Below, piece after piece: positions 1-7,330 of a stretch of 7,330 nt of DNA; position 1 is the stretch's first letter, and every line of letters starts with the position of its first letter. Under the pieces are notes generated by a model. It made no database searches and had not been told where the DNA came from. It saw only the letters and a list, made by a program, of their open reading frames with translations. Origin of the DNA: a virus (lineage: Duplodnaviria; Heunggongvirae; Uroviricota; Caudoviricetes); the IMG/VR virus record IMGVR_UViG_2609459769_000015. One strand, given 5' to 3'. The translations under genes and the position numbers were made by a program.

Positions 1-183
1 ATGACATTTTTACAGCTTATTTTATTGTATTTCTGCACGGCAGTATGTGCGTTATATCTGGTGAGTGGTGGTTATAAGGCCATCAGAAATTATGTTCGCC
101 GCAAAATTGAGGACGCAGCAGCTGAAAAACTCAGTAAAACAGCGCAGGTAACTCCGCTCCCAAAAGACCCGACCCAGCCCTGA
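1..183 (+). CDS. Hypothetical small membrane protein (60 aa): N-terminal hydrophobic helix FLQLILLYFCTAVCALYLV followed by a charged tail
   Basis: ORF begins with ATG at window position 1 (its promoter/RBS, or an upstream extension, would lie outside the window); stop TGA 181-183; 36 bp upstream of the next gene on the same strand. Confidence 0.35.
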   Translation: MTFLQLILLYFCTAVCALYLVSGGYKAIRNYVRRKIEDAAAEKLSKTAQVTPLPKDPTQP

Positions 184-218
184 TTGCAGGGCTTTATTCC
201 CGCATAAGGAGGATATAC

Positions 219-473
219 ATGCCAGAAATTAAAGGCACCGTCACTGAAGACCTGGTAAAACAGGCACTGTATTCCGGTGAAGTAAATAAGTTGCTGAAAG
301 CGCAGGTCCGCAAGGATTTTGAGGCACAAATCGACACTTACGTTGATGAAGTGCTGGCAAAACTTATTGGGCCAGCAGTTGCGGCCAGTGATGCTGATAA
401 TGAGCCGAAAACCGACGCGCAGCCAGAGCAACCAGACCCGGCTCAGCCCGGAACTGACAGTACCATGATGTAA
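219..473 (+). CDS. Hypothetical acidic protein (84 aa) with Pro/Gln/Asp-rich C-terminal tail
   Basis: ATG at 219 preceded by strong Shine-Dalgarno AAGGAGG (205-211); natural-looking composition; stable hairpin immediately after the stop. Confidence 0.5.
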   Translation: MPEIKGTVTEDLVKQALYSGEVNKLLKAQVRKDFEAQIDTYVDEVLAKLIGPAVAASDADNEPKTDAQPEQPDPAQPGTDSTMM

Positions 474-478
474 CAATA

Positions 479-506
479 CAAACCGGTGGTGTCCTCTGCC
501 GGTTTG
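479..506. terminator. Hairpin (8-bp stem CAAACCGG / CCGGTTTG, 12-nt loop) just after the 219..473 stop; possible terminator between convergent genes
   Basis: Perfect inverted repeat at 479-486 / 499-506; no clean U-tract on the plus strand, modest T-rich run on the minus-strand side. Confidence 0.3.
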
Positions 507-530
507 ACACTAATGAAAACATCTTTGCCG

Positions 531-572
531 CTATCCAGCCATATGTAATCGCTGGATAGTATTTCGTATTCA
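531..572 (+). terminator. Hairpin (9-bp stem CTATCCAGC / GCTGGATAG, 11-nt loop) followed by a T-rich tract TATTTCGTATTC; candidate intrinsic terminator
   Basis: Perfect inverted repeat 531-539 / 551-559 followed by T-rich sequence 560-572. Confidence 0.3.
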
Positions 573-640
573 GAAATATAGCTGCTTATGGAGCAGTCAA
601 TCCTGCTTCCCCATCCGGGCAGGCAAATGAACCGGTATCA

Positions 641-934
641 TTAGTCCGATTCACGCTTTTGTAGAATCGTTCCCAGAATGCTATACAGCTCATTAGCCTG
701 TTGCTCCATCATTGAGACGGAGGCTATACGGTGCAAAGTGATTTCAGGAGGTGGCACACCTCCATCTTCTTGCTGTGGAGGAAAAACATAAGATTTAATA
801 AAAAAGTTGAAGCATATGAACTCTCCCGCACTCGAACTGTATTTGCAGGCATCTGAATAATCGGAAAAATAATCATTATAGATTTCCGCATTTTCAATCA
901 TTTTTCGATTTCTCGTCGTTACATGATTGTCCAT
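641..934 (-). CDS. Hypothetical protein (97 aa), divergently oriented from com-mom
   Basis: ATG (reverse complement of 932-934) preceded by Shine-Dalgarno AAGAGG with 5-nt spacer; no family recognised by eye. Confidence 0.5.
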   Translation of the reverse strand: MDNHVTTRNRKMIENAEIYNDYFSDYSDACKYSSSAGEFICFNFFIKSYVFPPQQEDGGVPPPEITLHRIASVSMMEQQANELYSILGTILQKRESD

Positions 935-1057
935 AGCAGCCTCTTACGCTGGCAATTAACCAATTGACTTCTATAAATTAGTTGATTTGTTTGCTTTGCG
1001 GTATTCAAATGTACAATCATTCAGCACTTATGCGTTACAGCACCGTTTAAAATTAGT

Positions 1058-1147
1058 GATCAAACTCATAAATTTTCGCTAATGACATTTCGTGTTATTT
1101 GTTGTATCAATTAAATAAATCAAATCGATCGTTTTTGTCGATCGATT
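1058..1147. promoter_or_regulatory. com-mom upstream control region: three GATC (Dam) sites at 1058, 1127 and 1140, the latter two inside a perfect 9-bp inverted repeat AATCGATCG-N7-CGATCGATT (1123-1147)
   Basis: Read directly from sequence; AT-rich 250-bp intergenic region between divergent genes; candidate -35 ATGACA (1082-1087) and -10 TATCAA (1105-1110) are weak. Confidence 0.5.
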
Positions 1148-1190
1148 GAGTGATAAAGATATCAACAACAAAGCAGGAGGTTATGCGGCC

Positions 1191-1391
1191 ATGTATCGAA
1201 ACATACGGTGCCGACATTGTAACAAGCTACTGGCACGAGCCAGCTTCAGTTATCTGGAAGTTAAATGTCCGCGCTGTAAAACCCTCAATCAAATCACATC
1301 TCAGAGCGCCACAGAGCACCCCACATACACAAGGAAATCCTGTCGTGGGGAACAGAAAGCAAGTTACATCCCGTATCATCAGCACGCCTGA
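1191..1391 (+). CDS. com: Com-like zinc-finger translational activator (66 aa), Mu Com family
   Basis: ATG 1191 preceded by AGGAGG (1175-1180); Cys4 pattern CRHC...CPRC ([30 protein letters not shown]) closely resembles phage Mu Com; 3' end overlaps the start of the mom-like ORF as in Mu. Confidence 0.85.
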
Positions 1392-2082
1392 ACTTATTCA
1401 CTATAACGACAATATCGTCGGTTATGGCTCCCGTGAGTTACGGGTTGAGACAATAAGTTGCTGGCTGGCCCGGCTGGTCGTCGTCAATAAACATTACAGC
1501 CATCGTTTCGTAAATAATTCCTACCTTCATCTGGGCATATTTTCAGAACGGGAGCTGGTTGGCGTAATGCAATGGGGTTATGCCCTTAATCCAAACAATG
1601 GTGCACGCGTCGTAACTGGCACGCAGAACCGCGAATATATGGAGCTTAACCGGTTATGGCTGCATGACTGTATGCCGAGAAACTCCGAATCAAGGGCAAT
1701 CAGTTACGCGCTCAAACTAATCAGACAACTTTATCCGCAGGTGCAGTGGGTTCAGTCGTTTGCAGATGAGCGTTGTGGCTGTCTTGGTGTCGTGTACCAG
1801 GCAAGCAATTTTGATTATGTAGGCAGTCATGAAACAACATTCTATGAACTTGATGGCGAGTGGTATCACGAGATTTGCAAGAATGCAATCAAACGAGGAG
1901 GACAGCGAGGTGAACATCTGCGGGCTAATATCGACAGAGCCAGTGTTCATAAATTCCGTCAGTTTCGTTACATCCGGTTTCTGGACAAGAGAGCCAGAAA
2001 ACGCCTTAACACAAAGCTATTCAAAGTCCAGCCTTACCCAAAACCACAAACAGTTAAAACTGGTTTGAAAGAGAGTGAATGA
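1345..2082 (+). CDS. mom: Mom-like DNA modification protein (acyltransferase-fold adenine-modifying enzyme), about 245 aa if initiated at GTG 1345
   Basis: Long ORF overlapping com out of frame; motifs KHYSH, NSESR, SFAD recalled from Mu Mom; candidate start GTG 1345 with AAGGAAA (1331-1337) upstream; start position is uncertain (the ORF is open from 1150). Confidence 0.75.
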
Positions 2083-2117
2083 ACGCTTAAAAACTCATTC
2101 TAAAACTCAAAAGAAAA

Positions 2118-2158
2118 GCGCCGATTTAGTATCAAATAAGTTGCGTATCGGCGTTTTT
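2118..2158. terminator. Candidate bidirectional intrinsic terminator between convergent mom and dam: stem CGCCGAT / ATCGGCG (2119-2125 / 2147-2153), T5 on plus strand, T-rich run on minus strand
   Basis: Inverted repeat with 21-nt loop, followed by TTTTT (2154-2158) and preceded by AAAAGAAAA (2109-2117) which gives a U-tract for the opposite strand; the loop is long, hence moderate confidence. Confidence 0.4.
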
Positions 2159-2193
2159 CAGCGGTATCAAATGAAATGCAAATCGGTATCAAA
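2128..2193. repeat. Three direct copies of GTATCAAA (2129, 2164, 2186), two within an exact 10-bp repeat CGGTATCAAA (2162-2171 and 2184-2193, 22 bp apart)
   Basis: Read directly from sequence in the mom-dam intergenic region; function unknown. Confidence 0.4.
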
Positions 2194-2244
2194 AAAATCG
2201 CCGCGCTATATTAAAGCCGCTGCAGTTGTTCATATCAGCATGGC

Positions 2245-3102
2245 TCATGCACGCACTCCGTACACGGCAGAACTATCCACGCCACGCGAAGGATCAAATC
2301 CCACCCAGCAGCGCGCCCCAGAAACAGCGATGATTTCTGTTGCAGATTTACTCTCGCCAGCCGACACGCCGATGCTGCGTTTTGCCTTGATGTAGTGGTG
2401 AGTGAAATTTCGATACAGCGAACGGATCAGGGATGTGTCACTGTTAGAAACAATGACTGGATGACCTTCTGATGATCGATATTCAAGAACAGATGCCAGG
2501 TGATACTGGTCATCTTCAGTGAAGCCGTTAGTGTGATAGCCGGAAAACGTACCGTCATAAGGCGGATCGCAATACACCACATCCCCCACCTGCAGCATCG
2601 CCAGCGTTTCATCAAAGCTGGCGCAGATAAACGTTGCTTGCTGGGCTTTCTCTGCAAATGCGCGAATTTCTTTTTCAGGGAAATACGGATTTTTATAATT
2701 ACCGTATGGAATGTTGAAATGCCCGCTCTTGTTATAACGACATAACCCACGGTAACCATGACGATTGAGATACAGGAAATATACCGCTTTCATGAAATCA
2801 GTAATTTCAGTGGAGTAATTAAACTCCTGCCTTATGTTGTAATAAGCCAACTCCCTGTTTGCTTCCTCAAATAAAGCTCTGGCACGAGATATAAACGCCT
2901 CGCAATCAGCAGCAACCTTTTTATAGAGGTTGATTAAATCAGGATTAATATCCGCAACAAGATAGCTGGGGTAATCCGTCTCCATCATCACAGCACAGGA
3001 ACCCGCGAAAGGTTCAACCAGTCGCGGGCCAGCAGGAAGGTGTTTTTTCAGTTCGGACATTACGGCGGTTTTATTTCCCGCCCATTTCAGGATGGTGCTC
3101 AT
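2245..3102 (-). CDS. dam: DNA adenine methyltransferase, Dam family (D12-class N6-adenine MTase), 285 aa
   Basis: Strong resemblance to E. coli Dam along the length: [15 protein letters not shown] (AdoMet motif), [15 protein letters not shown], catalytic DPPY; start ATG at 3100-3102 overlaps the upstream stop in an ATGA junction. Confidence 0.9.
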
Positions 3103-3326
3103 ACAGCACCCCCGTTGTAATGTTTGCCTTTCAGCTCTGCGATTTCCTGACAGGTAATGCAAAGCTGCACACCCGGAATGGCACGGCGGCGTGCTGGCGG
3201 AATTGGCGCTTCACACTCAACGCAAAGCACGCGGGACACGCCCGGCGTTTTGGCACGGGCAGCACGGATATGGCGCTGGCGTTCTTCTTCAACGCGCTGC
3301 TGTACGAGATCCATTGCATCAGCCAT
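3099..3326 (-). CDS. TraR/DksA-family C4 zinc-finger protein (75 aa)
   Basis: CVEC...(17 aa)...CITC four-cysteine motif and size typical of phage TraR-like proteins; start overlaps the upstream gene stop (TAATG). Confidence 0.8.
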   Translation of the reverse strand: MADAMDLVQQRVEEERQRHIRAARAKTPGVSRVLCVECEAPIPPARRRAIPGVQLCITCQEIAELKGKHYNGGAV

Positions 3327-3559
3327 TAGTGGATCTCCTGCGCTTCGTTCTGGATTGCTTCAGCAGTCACACGCAGCAGTTCTGCCGCTTCCACGTGGTT
3401 TAGCTGACGGGATGAGATATGACACGCCAGGCTATCAAGGCGAGCTGCCATTGCTTCAGCCCTTGCCCGGCGTTCTTCCAGACGAGCCTCTGTCAGTAAA
3501 ATATTAAGCCCTGCGTCATCCGGTCCGGTTTTAGTCGTGAGGGTTTCAATATTACGCAT
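3326..3559 (-). CDS. Hypothetical early protein (77 aa), Ala/Arg/Glu-rich helical
   Basis: ATG (reverse complement of 3557-3559) preceded by AGGAG with 8-nt spacer; translationally coupled to the TraR-like gene; resembles small conserved proteins of P2-like early operons. Confidence 0.6.
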   Translation of the reverse strand: MRNIETLTTKTGPDDAGLNILLTEARLEERRARAEAMAARLDSLACHISSRQLNHVEAAELLRVTAEAIQNEAQEIH

Positions 3560-3626
3560 AATCAATTCTCCTGAATTTAGATAAAGGGATGCCCGGCGGG
3601 TTTACGCCATTAATTTCATTAGTTGG

Positions 3627-3968
3627 TTAATTCGGCATGGTTAGCCGTCTGGGAAATAAGCTCACCACTGCACGAAAATGATTCATTGCTTTAATCAGCT
3701 CCCGCTTTTCGTCAGTGGTCAGCTCATTAATGCTGATGCTATGACGTTCAGCTGGAATTTTTGCCATAAAGAATATGGCAGCCAGTGCCCGTTTATTTTG
3801 TTCATTATTGATATCCCGTGGATCACGCATATCTTTAATAAACCGCTCAAGCTCTGACTCAATATTCAGGCCAAAAACTTTCGCCCTTAACTCCGCAATG
3901 TGATTAAGTCCATTCAGGCGTTCACCGGGGCTTAATGGAACAGTTGCTGCAGCGCCATTAATTGCCAT
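3627..3968 (-). CDS. Hypothetical early protein (113 aa)
   Basis: ATG (reverse complement of 3966-3968) with G-rich RBS; ordinary protein-like composition; no family recognised by eye. Confidence 0.55.
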   Translation of the reverse strand: MAINGAAATVPLSPGERLNGLNHIAELRAKVFGLNIESELERFIKDMRDPRDINNEQNKRALAAIFFMAKIPAERHSISINELTTDEKRELIKAMNHFRAVVSLFPRRLTMPN

Positions 3969-3990
3969 ACTTCATATCCCCCAAACGCAG

Positions 3991-4215
3991 CTATCGTTCT
4001 TTGTTCTTACGGTAACGCTCAAGAGGAGATACATTTTTTCGTATCGTCTCTTTAACCTGCTCTCCCCGTAAAAACGTCCCATCCTTTAACGCGAAAAAGT
4101 AACTGCCATCGCCCGACAATGACGGATAGCAACAGAGCAAATCATCTTCAGGTACTGAATAACTCTCCCCTCTGTAACGAAACTGATAAACCACTTCACT
4201 TTCTGCCGCATACAT
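3991..4215 (-). CDS. Hypothetical early protein (74 aa)
   Basis: ATG (reverse complement of 4213-4215) preceded by GGAGAAAG; natural-looking sequence; overlaps the 3' extension of the upstream ORF in another frame. Confidence 0.6.
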   Translation of the reverse strand: MYAAESEVVYQFRYRGESYSVPEDDLLCCYPSLSGDGSYFFALKDGTFLRGEQVKETIRKNVSPLERYRKNKER

Positions 4216-4382
4216 TTGGACTTTCTCCGTTTCCTCGTGGTCAATTCAGACAGCAATTCATCTTGTGAATGACATGGATGCCAGCGTTTTCCATCCTCAC
4301 CCGTGATCCAGCCGTGACCGTAGTGCATTGCCGGGCTTTGTTTTACCAGCAGCGATGCAAATGATGGTTCTTTCGTCAGCAT
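4086..4382 (-). CDS. Hypothetical early protein downstream of cII (position of 186 fil); 98 aa as it stands, but the last ~42 aa look like out-of-frame read-through
   Basis: ATG (reverse complement of 4380-4382) preceded by GAGGTG; N-terminal 56 aa look protein-like, C-terminal part (Cys/Arg/Trp-rich) overlaps the 3991..4215 gene for 130 nt. Confidence 0.4.
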   Translation of the reverse strand: MLTKEPSFASLLVKQSPAMHYGHGWITGEDGKRWHPCHSQDELLSELTTRKRRKSKCMRQKVKWFISFVTEGRVIQYLKMICSVAIRHCRAMAVTFSR

Positions 4383-4389
4383 AAGCACC

Positions 4390-4899
4390 TCACAGCAAAC
4401 CGAATGAAGCACCGAGGCCAGTCACGGTATCAACTGCACTCGCCATCGCAGGGTTAGCCTGTAAACGGGCCTGCAATGAAACAGCAGCCAACGCCATCAG
4501 TCGTGTTACAGAGTTAATGCTGCTGATAGCATCACGACGACCTGCACTGGTTTTTACATCGCCAGATACCGCACCTGCAGCAACACGCCCGATCTCTGCG
4601 GTTGCACTCATGACGTAATGTGGCAGTTTCTCTTTTGCCACCTCATTAATTGGTACGCATGGCAGGCAGTGAATCTGTGCCAGAAAACCATCTACCAACG
4701 TTGAATCTTCAGTCAGATCGGTAAGCAGCCAGATTTCTGGTGCGGTTAATAAATGAGGTTGAGCTGGGTTCAGCTTGTTCCGCAGAATCTGCACATTCAT
4801 GCCCGCACGTTCTGCCAGTTGCACCAGATTGTGGCGCAGTGCGAATGCACGACAGGCTTCATCAAAATGTGGATGTTTGGAAACTTGGTAATCAAACAT
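4390..4899 (-). CDS. cII: Phage 186-type CII lysogeny-establishment activator (169 aa)
   Basis: Sequence [19 protein letters not shown]...[28 protein letters not shown] closely matches what I recall of phage 186 CII; ATG at 4897-4899 (reverse) is preferred over the TTG at 4906-4908 given by the ORF track. Confidence 0.85.
4873..4899. promoter_or_regulatory. Candidate CII operator: inverted 7-bp half-sites ATGTTTG (4873-4879) and CAAACAT (4893-4899), 20 bp centre-to-centre, overlapping the cII start codon; implies a rightward CII-dependent establishment promoter reading antisense through apl toward cI
   Basis: Half-sites read directly; the sequence and two-helical-turn spacing match my recollection of the 186 CII binding site at pE; weak -10-like ACTTAT at 4915-4920. 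Confidence 0.5.
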
Positions 4900-4963
4900 G
4901 GTTTTCAACTCCGAACTTATCGCAAAATCGAACTCAGCGTCTTATTGCGAAAATAGACGTCTA

Positions 4964-5167
4964 TTAAGCAGACAAAGCATCAACAGTCAGAGCAGCCAGG
5001 TTAATCATTACCTTTTCACGTTTTTTGTCTTTACGAAGACGATGACGAGGTAGTCGGCCATCAGCCAACATGTCGTTAATCGTATCAATAGAAAGGCCAG
5101 TCAGTTCGCTATAACGTTCGATTGTGACATGTGGTGTATTCAGAGTAATTGAAATGTTAGGTGTCAT
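4964..5167 (-). CDS. apl: Apl/Cox-family excisionase and transcriptional regulator (67 aa), first gene of the lytic operon
   Basis: HTH segment [25 protein letters not shown] resembles P2 Cox / 186 Apl; position immediately opposite cI across the switch region. Confidence 0.65.
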
Positions 5168-5312
5168 AAGGCAACATTCCTTCTAGATATGGCTTGTGGC
5201 GAGCCGTTGTTTGTCGTGATTAGTAGTGAAGGCTCCAAAAGAACACTTCTGGTTCAACTTTAAGATCGCTTTTGGAATCTGTCAACGAATTTTGGATTTC
5301 TTTGGAGGACTT
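5168..5312. promoter_or_regulatory. Lysis-lysogeny switch region. Candidate leftward lytic promoter (pR-like): -35 TTGACA (minus strand, 5280-5285), 17-bp spacer, -10 TAAAGT (5257-5262). Weaker candidate rightward promoter (pL-like): -35 GTGTCA 5161-5166, -10 TAGATA 5184-5189
   Basis: Hexamers read from sequence; face-to-face arrangement is that known for 186/P2; helically phased TTTGGA repeats at 5271, 5291, 5301 and TGTGGA at 5311 overlap the -35. Confidence 0.45.
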
Positions 5313-5882
5313 GTGGATTTCAATAGCGGCGGTAAGAAAGCCATAGAACGTTTAGTTGAAGCATATGGGTTCGGTACCCGTCAGGCTCTCTGTGATCATT
5401 TAGGTGTTTCTAAGAGCACCATGGCAACGCGCTATATGCGTGATATTTTTCCAGCAGATTGGGTAATCCAGTGCGCCCTTGAAACGGGCACCTCGCTTAA
5501 TTGGCTAACAACAGGGCATGGTTCAAAGCAAGCATCAGCAAATACAAATACTATAGAAGTAGAAAAATATTTATTGTCTGATGGAGCATTGCAGAAAGAC
5601 GGTTTTTATATTTTTGATAAGGGATTTCTACCCTCTACGTTTAAAAAACCTTTTGTCATCACAGATAACAATTCTGAATTTATTTGTGATAAAGAATTTG
5701 ATGATATACGTGATGGTAAATGGGTAATAAGTATTGATGGCGAAATAACGATCCGTGACATTACTCGTTTACCCGGTGGAAGAATCTTCGTCGAGGGTGG
5801 AAACAGAGCCTTCGAATGCAAGATAGAAGACATTGAAATAATTGGTAAAATTATAAGTTTAACAGTCAAGTATGTTAAATAG
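5313..5882 (+). CDS. cI: Phage 186-type CI immunity repressor (189 aa from GTG 5313; the ORF is open from GTG 5226)
   Basis: N-terminal HTH region ERLVEAYGF...CALETGTSLNWLTTGHG matches the 186 CI repressor family; GGAGG (5304-5308) precedes GTG 5313; the C-terminal half is AT-rich. Confidence 0.85.
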   Translation: MDFNSGGKKAIERLVEAYGFGTRQALCDHLGVSKSTMATRYMRDIFPADWVIQCALETGTSLNWLTTGHGSKQASANTNTIEVEKYLLSDGALQKDGFYIFDKGFLPSTFKKPFVITDNNSEFICDKEFDDIRDGKWVISIDGEITIRDITRLPGGRIFVEGGNRAFECKIEDIEIIGKIISLTVKYVK

Positions 5883-5897
5883 TACCGGGAGGAAACT

Positions 5898-6089
5898 ATG
5901 CTTGGTAAGGTATTTTTTGTGGTTTTGTCATGTTCTTTGTTATTAAACCCACTAACTACCTATGCTAGAAATTATCCCTGCTCAGGGAAAAAGGGAGGTG
6001 TTTCTCACTGTACCTCAGATGGCAAATTCGTTTGCAATGATGGAACTATTAGTAAATCCAAAAAAATCTGTACTAAAAACTCACGATAA
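5898..6089 (+). CDS. Small secreted Cys-rich protein (63 aa): signal peptide then a ~40-aa basic mature peptide with 4 Cys; moron between cI and int
   Basis: ATG 5898 with strong GGGAGG RBS (5-nt spacer) 16 bp after the cI stop; hydrophobic N-terminus [18 protein letters not shown]; AT-rich relative to flanks. Confidence 0.6.
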
Positions 6090-6224
6090 CTTTTGCTTTT
6101 ATATCTGCGTCTAAAATAAAAATGAGCCGCAGGTTAACCGCAAAAGTTACATGCTCACATAGCAAAAAGAATAGCCAACTTCATGATGGCTTCAGTGAGA
6201 TGTATGGTCGTAGGATTTCATACA

Positions 6225-6253
6225 TTGACACTGGTTATACATACAGTAAAAAT
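6225..6253 (+). promoter_or_regulatory. Near-consensus sigma70 promoter upstream of int (-35 TTGACA 6225-6230; -10 TAAAAA/AAAAAT 6247-6253) whose spacer is a LexA-box-like palindrome CTGGTTATACATACAG (6231-6246)
   Basis: Read from sequence; 13 of 16 positions match the CTGT-N8-ACAG LexA consensus (CTGG half-site as in ruvA box), with a perfect ACAGTA distal half. Confidence 0.4.
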
Positions 6254-6277
6254 GCTCTCTACTGGAGGGCATTTTTT

Positions 6278-7330
6278 ATGGCAGTACGAAAACTCACCAC
6301 AGGGAAATGGCTTTGCGAATGTTACCCCGCCGGACGTAGTGGGCGTCGTGTGCGTAAACAATTCGCCACCAAAGGCGAAGCTCTGGCTTTTGAGCGCCAC
6401 ACGATGGAAGAAACCGAAGCAAAGCCCTGGCTGGGTGAATCAGTGGATCGTCGAACACTGAAAGACGTAGTTGAGCTATGGTTCAAACTACATGGTAAAT
6501 CTCTGACAGCTGGGCAGCATGTCTATGACAAATTGCTGTTGATGGTTGACGCTCTGGGTAATCCTCTTGCAACCGATCTCACCTCTAAAATGTTTGCCCA
6601 CTATCGAGATAAACGCCTGACAGGCGAGATCTACTTCAGCGAGAAATGGAAGAAAGGAGCAAGCCCGGTCACCATTAACCTGGAGCAAAGCTATCTAAGT
6701 AGTGTTTTTAGCGAACTATCCCGTCTGGGCGAATGGTCGTATCCGAACCCACTGGAGAACATGCGAAAATTCACCATCGCAGAAAAAGAGATGGCATGGC
6801 TTACCCATGAGCAGATTGTTGAATTGCTGGCTGATTGCAAACGTCAGGACCCAATTCTGGCACTGGTAGTTAAGATATGCTTAAGCACAGGCGCACGCTG
6901 GCGTGAAGCCGTAAATCTTACCCGCTCACAGGTGACCAAATACCGAATTACCTTTGTCAGAACGAAGGGGAAGAAAAACAGAAGCATCCCTATCAGTAAA
7001 GAGCTTTACGAAGAGATCATGGCGCTTGATGGGTTCAATTTCTTTACAGACTACTATTTTCAATTTTTATCCGTGATGGAAAAAACGTCTATCGTGCTCC
7101 CTCGCGGTCAACTCACACACGTTCTGCGCCATACGTTTGCGGCGCACTTCATGATGTCGGGTGGAAACATTCTCGCCTTACAAAAAATTCTCGGACACCA
7201 CGATATAAAAATGACTATGCGTTACGCACATCTGGCACCAGATCATCTGGAAACGGCGCTCCGTTTCAATCCTCTGGCAACGCTGCCAAGTGGCGACAAA
7301 GTGGCGGCAGCGGTTGGCATTACCCCGTAA
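6278..7330 (+). CDS. int: Tyrosine site-specific integrase, P2/186 family (350 aa)
   Basis: N-terminus MAVRKLTTGKW...RKQFATKGEALAFERHT parallels P2 Int; catalytic region LSTGARWREA, HVLRHTFAAHF, MRYAHL with active-site Tyr; ATG 6278 preceded by GGAGGG (6265-6270); stop is the last codon of the window. Confidence 0.9.
   Translation: MAVRKLTTGKWLCECYPAGRSGRRVRKQFATKGEALAFERHTMEETEAKPWLGESVDRRTLKDVVELWFKLHGKSLTAGQHVYDKLLLMVDALGNPLATDLTSKMFAHYRDKRLTGEIYFSEKWKKGASPVTINLEQSYLSSVFSELSRLGEWSYPNPLENMRKFTIAEKEMAWLTHEQIVELLADCKRQDPILALVVKICLSTGARWREAVNLTRSQVTKYRITFVRTKGKKNRSIPISKELYEEIMALDGFNFFTDYYFQFLSVMEKTSIVLPRGQLTHVLRHTFAAHFMMSGGNILALQKILGHHDIKMTMRYAHLAPDHLETALRFNPLATLPSGDKVAAAVGITP

Follow-up and report, generated by a model that had tools for sequence, protein, structure and literature searches.

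The right end of phage Mu, in the order gin, com, mom and attR, is the closest described counterpart of one part of the locus analysed here. Its com and mom genes overlap, their control region carries GATC sites, the terminus bears repeated motifs and the insertion sites are random, and a divergent promoter, momP2, has been documented in the phage (PMC3378877). The distance between gin and com is 94 bp in Mu, and the genome terminates in ...CGCTTCA.

With NanS-p esterases, enterohaemorrhagic E. coli can use O-acetylated sialic acids from mucin for growth. In Stx and other lambdoid phages (933W, phi24B-type and VT2-Sakai among them), the nanS-p gene leads a block that continues with a DUF1378 gene and a DUF826 gene and is placed between the Q/stx region and holin gene S. 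The latter two families are mentioned in a single paper, where they are unannotated ORFs lying between nanS-p and S; the 20 papers listed by a locus-tag search were all unrelated, and no paper linking nanS-p with Mu-like phages was found. One NanS-p was reported as a capsid-decorating protein in a 2026 preprint, with DUF1737 as the capsid-binding N-terminal domain (bioRxiv 10.64898/2026.04.10.717836).

The window, that is, the whole stretch of 7,330 nucleotides analysed here, shares features with both systems. The account set out below, which runs from a Mu-like right end that lies in a 186-like prophage and carries a nanS-p cassette and a replaceable slot to the more tentative gene roles proposed further on, is considered probable when taken as a whole.

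The Mu-like right end and its insertion site

Positions 1-2210 of the window are the right end of a Mu-like transposable prophage, which has transposed into the replication-endonuclease gene (at codon ~13) of a 186/P2-like prophage occupying 2211-7330. The features discussed are as follows.

1..183, + strand: ORF1, DUF1378 protein of 60 aa, second gene of the nanS-p cassette (Pfam PF07125; PHROG 494)
219..473, + strand: ORF2, 84-aa DUF826 protein, last of the three nanS-p cassette genes (Pfam PF05696; PHROG 311)
479..506, no strand: GC-rich hairpin right after the DUF826 stop, marking the cassette end and the left slot edge (inverted repeat; sister homology ends at 502-507)
508..1081, no strand: replaceable slot with fixed borders, holding ORF3 here and unrelated genes in sisters (blastn against eight sister Mu-like loci)
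531..559, no strand: second hairpin, in the slot, between the convergent genes (12-nt arms, 92% complementary; folds of both strands)
641..934, - strand: ORF3, an acidic orphan of 97 aa (pI 4.7) without a recognisable domain (reading frame and substitution pattern)
1082..1190, no strand: com-mom control region (aligns with Mu 35,650-35,970; kept in all Mu-like loci from 1082 on)
1191..1391, + strand: com, translational activator of mom (Pfam Zn_ribbon_Com, E 7.5e-13; PHROG 'gpCom')
1345..2082, + strand: mom, DNA-modification enzyme (Pfam Mom, 261 bits; PHROG 1384)
2083..2210, no strand: right terminus of the Mu-like prophage, ending ...CGCTATA at 2210 (three direct GTATCAAA repeats; 22 loci and the window)
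2211..2248, - strand: remnant of the 186-like replication-endonuclease gene, first ~12 codons, the insertion target (comparison with strain 1283; break at 2211)

Across 23 sequences (22 loci and the window), the same DNA runs through 2210 and all diverge from 2211, so that a common terminus is followed by differing flanks, including xdhA, flgL, hsdR and agaF, and the element is flanked by disrupted host genes in other genomes. The repeated motif GTATCAAA occurs only at 2129, 2164 and 2186, against a chance expectation of 0.27 matches. What is expected of the right end of a Mu-like prophage is thus found here, namely com-mom with Dam-site control at the genome end and a fixed terminus with unrelated flanks. 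In strain 1283, which carries an uninterrupted 186-like prophage, the replication endonuclease starts 37 nt past the equivalent of window position 2211; the 186-like replication gene appears to be 'missing' from the window because the Mu-like prophage has interrupted it. The whole window was not found in any one complete E. coli genome, with homology breaking at 2211. The left end of the element, where transposase A/B genes and a 5-bp target-site duplication would be expected, falls outside the window, and no database record with this Mu-like/186-like junction was found.

The likeness to Mu extends to the overlap of com and mom in the same manner, the alignable GATC control region, the terminal repeated motifs and the random insertion sites. 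A GATC-bearing palindrome at 1123-1147, with GATC at 1127 and 1140, is homologous to the Dam/OxyR region of Mu. The two elements differ in that the gin-com interval here has about 3.4 kb of extra genes, namely those for the esterase, DUF1378 and DUF826 and those of the slot, and in that the end sequence is unalignable with Mu attR. The initial annotation was borne out in describing accessory genes that adjoin com-mom, but assigned them to a 186/P2-like early operon, whereas they lie within the Mu-like element. Its comparison with the retron-Ec67 region found no counterpart either, as no reverse-transcriptase-length ORF is present in 1-1150 and an Rfam scan of 1-2400 matched no RNA family.

The nanS-p, DUF1378 and DUF826 cassette

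Three small ORFs had been proposed, at 1-183 and 219-473 on the forward strand and at 641-934 on the reverse strand, and all three were recovered. Judged by homology and gene order, ORF1 and ORF2 close a three-gene block led by a nanS-p-type sialate O-acetylesterase. The window opens at the ORF1 ATG, and the upstream DNA was checked on 14 genomes that are 100% identical over 1-1150, one of which was read fully. In that copy the esterase gene, on the same strand, stops 144 bp short of position 1, and its product, with SASA and DUF6645 domains, shares 76% identity over 576 aa with lambdoid NanS-p; the suspicion that part of the unit lies upstream of position 1 was therefore correct.

The order esterase, DUF1378, DUF826 was seen in all 38 Mu-like loci with enough sequence, across esterase identities from 52% to 100%, and likewise in 12/12 lambdoid/Stx contexts, among them 933W and a prophage of Citrobacter farmeri. 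The Stx/lambdoid block has the three genes in the order found here and at similar distances, and a hairpin between genes is conserved, with compensatory changes across Mu-like and lambdoid types. Relative to the O55:H7 lambdoid copy, identity falls from 76% for the esterase to about 62% for DUF1378 and about 40% for DUF826. The esterase here lacks the DUF1737 N-terminal domain of the lambdoid type and has a different 108-aa N-terminus instead. The carrier also differs, being a Mu-like, myovirus-type phage in which the block is placed between tail-fibre/gin and com-mom, and the part of the right end that was examined has no annotated lysis gene; in the lambdoid contexts, by contrast, the pair adjoins a class II (S21-type) holin gene in 11 of the 12, an IS3 element lying between them in the remaining one (L044).

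The linkage is not universal from the side of the esterase. Phage YYZ-2008 has nanS-p and holin while the DUF1378/DUF826 pair is absent, and ~12% of nanS-p phage records (351 vs 307) are without detectable DUF826. Allele combinations of esterase, DUF1378 and DUF826 are shuffled and strict co-variation is absent, which makes co-variation uninformative as a test of interaction; physical linkage alone could account for the three genes travelling together. An apparent DUF1378-DUF826 fusion (PHROG 8301, 139 positions; 933W NP_049503.1, 148 aa) was rejected because the DNA shows two genes, the 148-aa 'fusion' of 933W being a mis-annotation caused by an over-extended GTG start in another frame.

The initial annotation held that none of the three products resembles anything recognisable; this stands for ORF3, for which no domain was found, and fails for the other two. 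ORF1 matches Pfam PF07125 with 109.4 bits (E 9.4e-32, residues 1-58 on model positions 1-58 of 59) and ORF2 matches PF05696 with 58.7 bits (E 6.4e-16, residues 1-57 on model positions 1-58 of 75), both passing the Pfam gathering threshold of 25 bits for these families. ORF2 also matches PHROG 311 over its full length (E 4.9e-28) and is identical to a RefSeq protein, as ORF1 is to WP_000143468.1 (identical copies).

The earlier description of a single-pass membrane protein followed by an acidic protein with a Pro/Gln-rich tail agrees with hydropathy, charge and pI. ORF1 is hydrophobic in one stretch only, residues 3-21 (Kyte-Doolittle mean 2.27), which is predicted to form an N-terminal transmembrane helix, after which its tail is basic (about +3.8) and amphipathic; the invariant columns of DUF1378 fall in its helix. 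ORF2 has a pI of 4.2, with a charge of -6 in its Pro/Gln-rich tail (residues 51-84). In the AlphaFold2 model, residues 10-17 and 20-59 are helical, giving a long amphipathic helix, and the acidic tail beyond it is disordered; the pLDDT, averaged in blocks of 10 residues, is 81-93 for residues 11-50 and drops to about 45-53 beyond them. The invariant columns of DUF826 fall in its N-terminal half.

No DUF826 was found in a scan of one genome per species, and when 1.84 billion representatives were searched exhaustively with HMMER, just 19 matched at E <= 0.001, four of them probably spuriously, through short stretches of proteins of ~1,000-6,800 aa. The DUF826 family is narrow, as the empty species scan and the small number of HMMER matches indicate. 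Its searches yielded no informative domain architecture, and profile searches of the PDB for relatives of the small proteins gave nothing below E 0.4.

The strong ribosome-binding sites noted earlier for two of the genes were both found: AAGGAGG at 207-213, 6 nt 5' of the ORF2 ATG, and AAGAGG, 5 nt 5' of the ORF3 ATG at 934. That of ORF1, GGGAGGG, lies before position 1 and was read only from an identical copy. Selection was gauged from pN/pS, which is 0.17-0.28 for ORF1 and 0.10-0.18 for ORF2; against a relative 86-90% identical, the values are 0.17 (Fisher p = 2e-5) and 0.10 (p = 6e-6), respectively, with 0.39 (p = 3e-3) for ORF3. Alternative frames overlapping ORF1-3 give 0.6-1.5. The three are more than chance ORFs because synonymous changes are in excess.

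The hairpins described between the convergent units were likewise recovered, at 479-506 and 531-559. The former, with which the cassette ends, has 8-nt perfect arms, and minimum-free-energy folding gives it an 11-bp stem. For 470-575 as a whole the folding energy is -32.1 kcal/mol (z = -3.6), a value matched by 0/200 shuffles.

ORF3 and the replaceable slot

When the window was compared by blastn with eight sister loci, seven lost similarity at 502-507 and regained it at 1082 (six loci) or 1096 (one), while the eighth (L002), which also has ORF3, shows no such break in the alignment. The slot thus bounded is occupied by the 97-aa ORFan, a protein of 154 aa, one of 66 aa or a zinc-ribbon protein of 175 aa, with two more loci matching none of these, and its content differs among sister prophages in which Com and Mom stay 94-100% identical. 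Conservation of the trio as a unit, the lack of which the initial annotation had itself taken to tell against its reading, was not found, ORF3 being replaced by unrelated genes in the sisters. The proposal that ORF3 regulates com-mom also fell away; ORF3 is not a dedicated regulator of these genes because it has no DNA-binding domain and the slot varies against a constant com-mom.

ORF3 had no match in Pfam, NCBIfam or PADLOC. Its 97-aa start is preferred over the 86-aa RefSeq version since a diverged homologue keeps the upstream Met and is without the internal one. Whether the ORF encodes a functional protein at all deserves consideration, as it might instead be a chance or decaying frame in a non-essential spacer. 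Its relatives amount to just 14 protein clusters among 5.8 billion, those named to an organism all belonging to the close relatives E. coli or Shigella; it is domainless, its AlphaFold2 model is of such low confidence (pLDDT 50.7) as to be unusable, its pN/pS indicates weaker constraint than that of its neighbours, and several sister prophages carry truncated or frameshifted slot occupants. Against this, the frame is intact in 13 loci and the window, including an 80% identical copy, the synonymous excess (p = 0.003) contrasts with 0.6-1.1 in the alternative frames, and a good ribosome-binding site precedes the conserved start, so that a non-coding ORF3 is judged improbable.

Under the favoured reading, ORF3 would be a lysogen-type 'moron' (an added accessory gene) that may be transcribed leftward from a counterpart of the Mu promoter momP2. 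No leftward sigma-70-like promoter was detected in 1082-1190 by a simple scan; promoter-like sites in the scan were at chance level, and the terminator scan gave matches that were short and uninformative.

Possible roles of the DUF1378-DUF826 pair

A mechanism can be proposed in which DUF1378 would insert N-out/C-in into the inner membrane and its invariant basic amphipathic helix (YKxIRNYxRxKIxxAAxEK) would hold the cytoplasmic, long-helix DUF826 protein at the membrane, with the acidic Pro/Gln-rich tail of the latter projecting into the cytoplasm. Both proteins would be made with NanS-p in one transcription unit closed by the hairpin, and the pair may act in a NanS-p-related or late-stage membrane step, for example one that handles or releases the esterase or particles decorated with it, rather than in defence or anti-restriction. 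The interaction between the two proteins is inferred solely from charge and helix patterns, no structural match tying either of them to NanS-p was found, and recombinant NanS-p enzymes are active alone (review PMC8065619), which counts against a need for the pair. The anchoring mechanism in its entirety, with ORF3 as a moron, is put forward tentatively, as a possibility more doubtful than likely. A stronger version, in which DUF1378 and DUF826 would form a dedicated membrane-anchored partner of NanS-p controlling particle loading or release from the lysogen, and the slot would be an accessory/defence hotspot, appears unlikely.

The T4 antiholins RI and RIII are a small single-pass membrane protein and a small helical cytoplasmic protein, respectively. 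By functional analogy, the DUF1378-DUF826 pair might regulate the holin or SAR-endolysin step and thereby the timing of lysis, its link to nanS-p being positional only. The combination of one transmembrane and one soluble helical protein fits antiholin pairs, and in the lambdoid contexts the pair is found upstream of the class II holin gene in all 12, in a region that is late-transcribed and Q-dependent (PMC10462455). Neither protein matches any Pfam holin or antiholin family, however, and the predicted cytoplasmic tail of DUF1378 differs from the periplasmic sensing domain of the T4 antiholin. The pair is also under purifying selection in the Mu-like prophages, where it persists away from lysis genes, whereas it is absent from YYZ-2008, whose holin/YdfR/lysozyme cassette is laid out alike. 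A lysis-timing function is accordingly given a low probability, on a par with that of the dedicated NanS-p partner.

Small inner-membrane proteins commonly act as exclusion factors. The pair could on that ground be an independent moron that blocks the entry or development of other phages, with the ORF3 slot as a hotspot of defence or anti-defence genes, and the location at the genome end, between the late genes and com-mom and beside a swapped slot, is typical of accessory hotspots. The searches did not favour this reading, as PADLOC returned nothing for ORF1, ORF3, the esterase or the three other slot occupants (175, 154 and 66 aa), its sole match for ORF2 being a partial one of 12.9 bits to PbeC (E 0.0076). 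It would also leave unexplained the invariant linkage to nanS-p in two unrelated backbones, and the lambdoid copies are in a Q-dependent late position, not one expressed in the lysogen. Exclusion or defence is consequently deemed slightly less probable still than control of lysis.

Very improbable is the reading of the initial annotation, with the three genes as toxin-immunity, abortive-infection or DNA-mimic cargo of a 186/P2-like operon near dam and ORF3 regulating com-mom, for which the acidity of ORF2 and ORF3 and their adjacency to the anti-restriction function mom can be cited, but which conflicts with the location in a Mu-like element, the lack of conservation of the trio, the variable slot next to a constant com-mom, an ORF3 devoid of a DNA-binding domain and searches of Pfam, NCBIfam and PADLOC in which no defence, toxin-antitoxin or anti-restriction family was matched. 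DNA mimics of the ArdA/Ocr type were among the families without a Pfam or NCBIfam match, and the acidic part of ORF2 is predicted to be disordered.

The three genes are real but largely ordinary, comprising two catalogued families that follow nanS-p and one orphan in a swappable slot. For annotation, the lesson is that what looks like 'odd cargo next to dam' is one prophage transposed into another, the insertion of the Mu-like element having inactivated the 186-like replication gene. The DUF1378-DUF826 pair follows nanS-p in every lambdoid or Mu-like context read, even though about one in eight nanS-p phage records is without it, and this fixed linkage across two unrelated backbones, together with purifying selection, gives a concrete reason to test the pair with NanS-p. 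Should the stronger version of the NanS-p partnership be true, esterase, DUF1378 and DUF826 would constitute a single functional unit with a history of transfer between lambdoid and Mu-like phages, and the slot at 508-1081, with its fixed borders, would be an accessory/defence hotspot that has so far gone unrecognised in Mu-like prophages and is read from the leftward mom promoter.

Genomic identity of the segment carrying the small genes

In similarity searches the window falls into two parts, with the break at 2211. The stretch 2211-7330 matches E. coli and Klebsiella prophages of the 186/P2-like type, and 1-2211 matches a different element located elsewhere in E. coli; the junction itself was found in no complete E. 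coli genome. The features concerned are as follows.

1-183, + strand: ORF1, 60 aa (ORF list, sequence)
219-473, + strand: ORF2, 84 aa (ORF list, sequence)
641-934, - strand: ORF3, 97 aa (ORF list, sequence)
2083-2248: Mu-like right end inserted into the 186-like replication-endonuclease gene, with the terminus at 2210 and three GTATCAAA repeats

In other genomes, segment 1-2210 terminates a prophage that encodes Mu-type head, sheath, baseplate, and tail-fibre proteins and often a gin-like invertase as well. Beyond it lie interrupted host genes, which vary between strains and include xdhA, flgL, hsdR, and agaF. The terminus ...AAATCGCCGCGCTATA is common to 22 loci and the window, with divergence from the next base onwards, and places the Mu-like right end (...CGCTATA) at window 2210. 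Three GATATCAAA-type repeats (GTATCAAA) lie in the last 85 bp, with 0.27 expected by chance and none elsewhere in the window. The identification of com and mom was unambiguous, and the GATC-bearing region 5' of com could be aligned with the Dam/OxyR control region of phage Mu. Of only three GATC sites in the entire 2210-bp Mu-like part, the two in the mom control region both fall in a perfect palindrome at 1123-1147 (AATCGATCG-N7-CGATCGATT). In one viral contig (L029:7033-8135), the mom match is interrupted, with window 1358-2110 absent and approximately 1.1 kb of other DNA in its place, which suggests an insertion or replacement within mom.

A copy of the 186-like prophage that lacks the interruption has the equivalent of window 2211 at 37 nt into its replication-endonuclease gene, and this gene overlaps the end of dam. 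A Mu-like phage has transposed into this replication gene, so that the early operon seems to end after dam, and an insertion at this point probably renders the 186-like prophage replication-defective. The left junction, beyond the window, is predicted to carry TTAAA as a 5-bp duplication. The initial annotation had taken the small genes for cargo of a 186/P2-like early operon; segment 1-2210 instead belongs to the Mu-like element, and their puzzling position arises from the insertion of one prophage into another.

Purifying selection and protein architecture

All three ORFs proposed by the initial annotation were upheld by the ORF list and the sequence. In ORF1, residues 3-21 form a single strongly hydrophobic segment, after which the tail is basic; ORF2 (pI 4.2) carries a tail rich in Pro, Gln, Asp, and Glu, and ORF3 has a pI of 4.7. 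The strong ribosome-binding sites claimed for two genes were located as AAGGAGG (ORF2) and AAGAGG (ORF3), while that of ORF1 (GGGAGGG), outside the window, was read in an identical copy. The hairpins said to separate the convergent units were likewise found, at 479-506 and 531-559, in a region folding better than 200 of 200 shuffles (z = -3.6).

Given that the window contains 72 ORFs with a length of 30 aa or more, coding was tested directly using prophages 86-96% identical to it. The pN/pS ratios were 0.17-0.28 for ORF1, 0.10-0.18 for ORF2, and 0.38-0.39 for ORF3, as against 0.6-1.5 for alternative frames, with a significant synonymous excess in each case (p = 2e-5, 6e-6, and 3e-3, respectively). 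A non-functional ORF3 is accordingly improbable. In a diverged homologue of ORF3 the upstream start is preserved and the internal Met missing, so the product is probably 97 aa long, contrary to the 86-aa RefSeq call. That call, in E. coli genomes, looks 11 codons too short.

Gene linkage in the esterase cassette and the adjoining slot

ORF1 and ORF2, previously thought to resemble nothing recognisable, match Pfam DUF1378 (109 bits; PHROG 494) and DUF826 (59 bits; PHROG 311) and are identical to RefSeq proteins so annotated; both families and the exact proteins are thus already catalogued. The literature mentions them in one paper, only as ORFs between nanS-p and S. The suspicion that part of the system lies upstream proved well founded: a nanS-p-type esterase gene (L001:9802-11856 in a compared locus), annotated in RefSeq only as a “DUF6645 domain-containing protein”, ends 144 bp before position 1. 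The Mu-like esterase shares 76% identity over 576 aa with lambdoid NanS-p, the prophage sialate O-acetylesterase; it has SASA and DUF6645 domains, with the SASA and lectin-like portions kept. Where lambdoid NanS-p has its DUF1737 capsid-binding domain, it bears an unrelated N-terminus of 108 aa with no family match.

Reference proteins were mapped to 40 Mu-like loci, of which 38 had enough sequence to determine gene order; all 38 have esterase, DUF1378, and DUF826 in this order, with esterase identity down to 52% versus 94-100% for Com and Mom. All 12 lambdoid contexts examined, including phage 933W and a Citrobacter farmeri prophage, have the cassette 5' of a class II holin. The real 933W genes encode a 59-aa DUF1378 (L042:4476-4655) and a 90-aa DUF826 protein (L042:4697-4968); NP_049503.1 (148 aa, GTG start; L042:4476-4968 = NC_000924 25261-25753) was rejected as an over-extended call, and PHROG 8301 probably collects similar ones. 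The GC-rich esterase/DUF1378 intergenic hairpin (L001:11868-11905) occurs in Mu-like and lambdoid copies with compensatory changes (alignment A6), one Mu-like lineage (L008) being without it; given the run of seven A ahead of it, the hairpin resembles an intrinsic terminator of the opposite rather than the coding strand. In 933W, a canonical terminator-like hairpin (GGCCAGCAG...CTGCTGGCC, then TTTTT; L042:4969-5044) lies between DUF826 and holin S, so that Q-independent transcription of the esterase block would halt before the lysis genes.

The pair is not obligatory beside nanS-p. In the Stx1 phage YYZ-2008, nanS-p is followed by a 447-bp gap (L047:4352-4798), with no ORF of >30 aa confined to it and no DUF1378 or DUF826 homologue, and then the holin; in the phage collection, NanS-p occurs in 351 records versus 307 for DUF826. 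Both families are narrow: DUF826 gave 19 matches among 1.84 billion representatives and none in species-representative genomes, and DUF1378 occurs almost exclusively in Escherichia and Shigella.

In seven of eight sister Mu-like loci, similarity to the window is lost at 502-507, directly 3' of the first hairpin, and regained at 1082 (1096 in one of the seven); in the eighth, L002, ORF3 is present and the alignment continuous. The intervening slot was occupied as follows.

Slot occupants among 40 Mu-like loci
ORF3: 13/40
154-aa protein (PHROG 26524), sole detected occupant, full-length or truncated: 10/40
66-aa gene, + strand: 10/40, of which 9/10 also retain part of the 154-aa gene
175-aa zinc-ribbon protein: 1/40
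Remaining loci: 6/40, two without a match to the listed occupants and four with too little sequence

ORF3 has no family match and an unusable structure model, and only 14 clusters were found in 5.8 billion proteins, every named organism being E. coli or Shigella; the three other occupants matched no defence model. Fixed borders with varying occupants indicate, from the loci compared, that the site is a hotspot with interchangeable occupants, ORF3 being one of them. ORF3 is not partnered with ORF1 and ORF2, nor is it a regulator dedicated to com-mom, a role once suggested by its position, as slot content varies among loci with Com and Mom at 94-100%.

Proposed role of the DUF1378-DUF826 pair

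The transmembrane helix of DUF1378 is preceded by two residues and immediately followed by five basic ones, so that the positive-inside rule predicts an N-out/C-in orientation. The amphipathic basic helix of DUF1378 and the N-terminal half of DUF826 are invariant and may form the contact surfaces; the DUF826 model consists of a single long helix, at block-mean pLDDT 81-93 for residues 11-50, and an acidic tail that is disordered. Orientation and invariant surfaces together lead us to propose that the two proteins form a complex anchored in the membrane at its cytoplasmic face; they would be expressed along with NanS-p, from a unit that a hairpin closes here (479-506) as well as in 933W.

A lysis-timing, antiholin-like role would fit the lambdoid position of the pair, but not its retention in Mu-like prophages or its absence from YYZ-2008. 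Only the esterase neighbours the pair in both phage backbones, and a membrane function related to the esterase or to a late stage is therefore preferred over a holin-specific one. Superinfection exclusion or defence would suit a genome-end hotspot, yet no model matched and the linkage to the esterase would be left unexplained. The toxin-immunity, anti-restriction, or regulator module of the initial annotation fails on location, conservation, and family tests alike.

The NanS-p of phi24B has been reported to be a capsid-decorating protein that binds via its N-terminal DUF1737 domain (bioRxiv 10.64898/2026.04.10.717836), and the different N-terminus of the Mu-like esterase is consistent with adaptation to a different particle. 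Phage Mu possesses a divergent promoter, momP2, used without activator C (PMC3378877); by analogy, an equivalent in the conserved flank 1082-1190 might read into any slot cassette, though a simple scan of that flank found no leftward promoter.

YYZ-2008 represents a natural “deletion” of the pair and a possible comparison strain. What is modestly new is the fixed esterase-DUF1378-DUF826 block common to lambdoid and Mu-like phages, the variable slot with fixed borders adjoining the mom control region, and the altered N-terminus of the Mu-like esterase.
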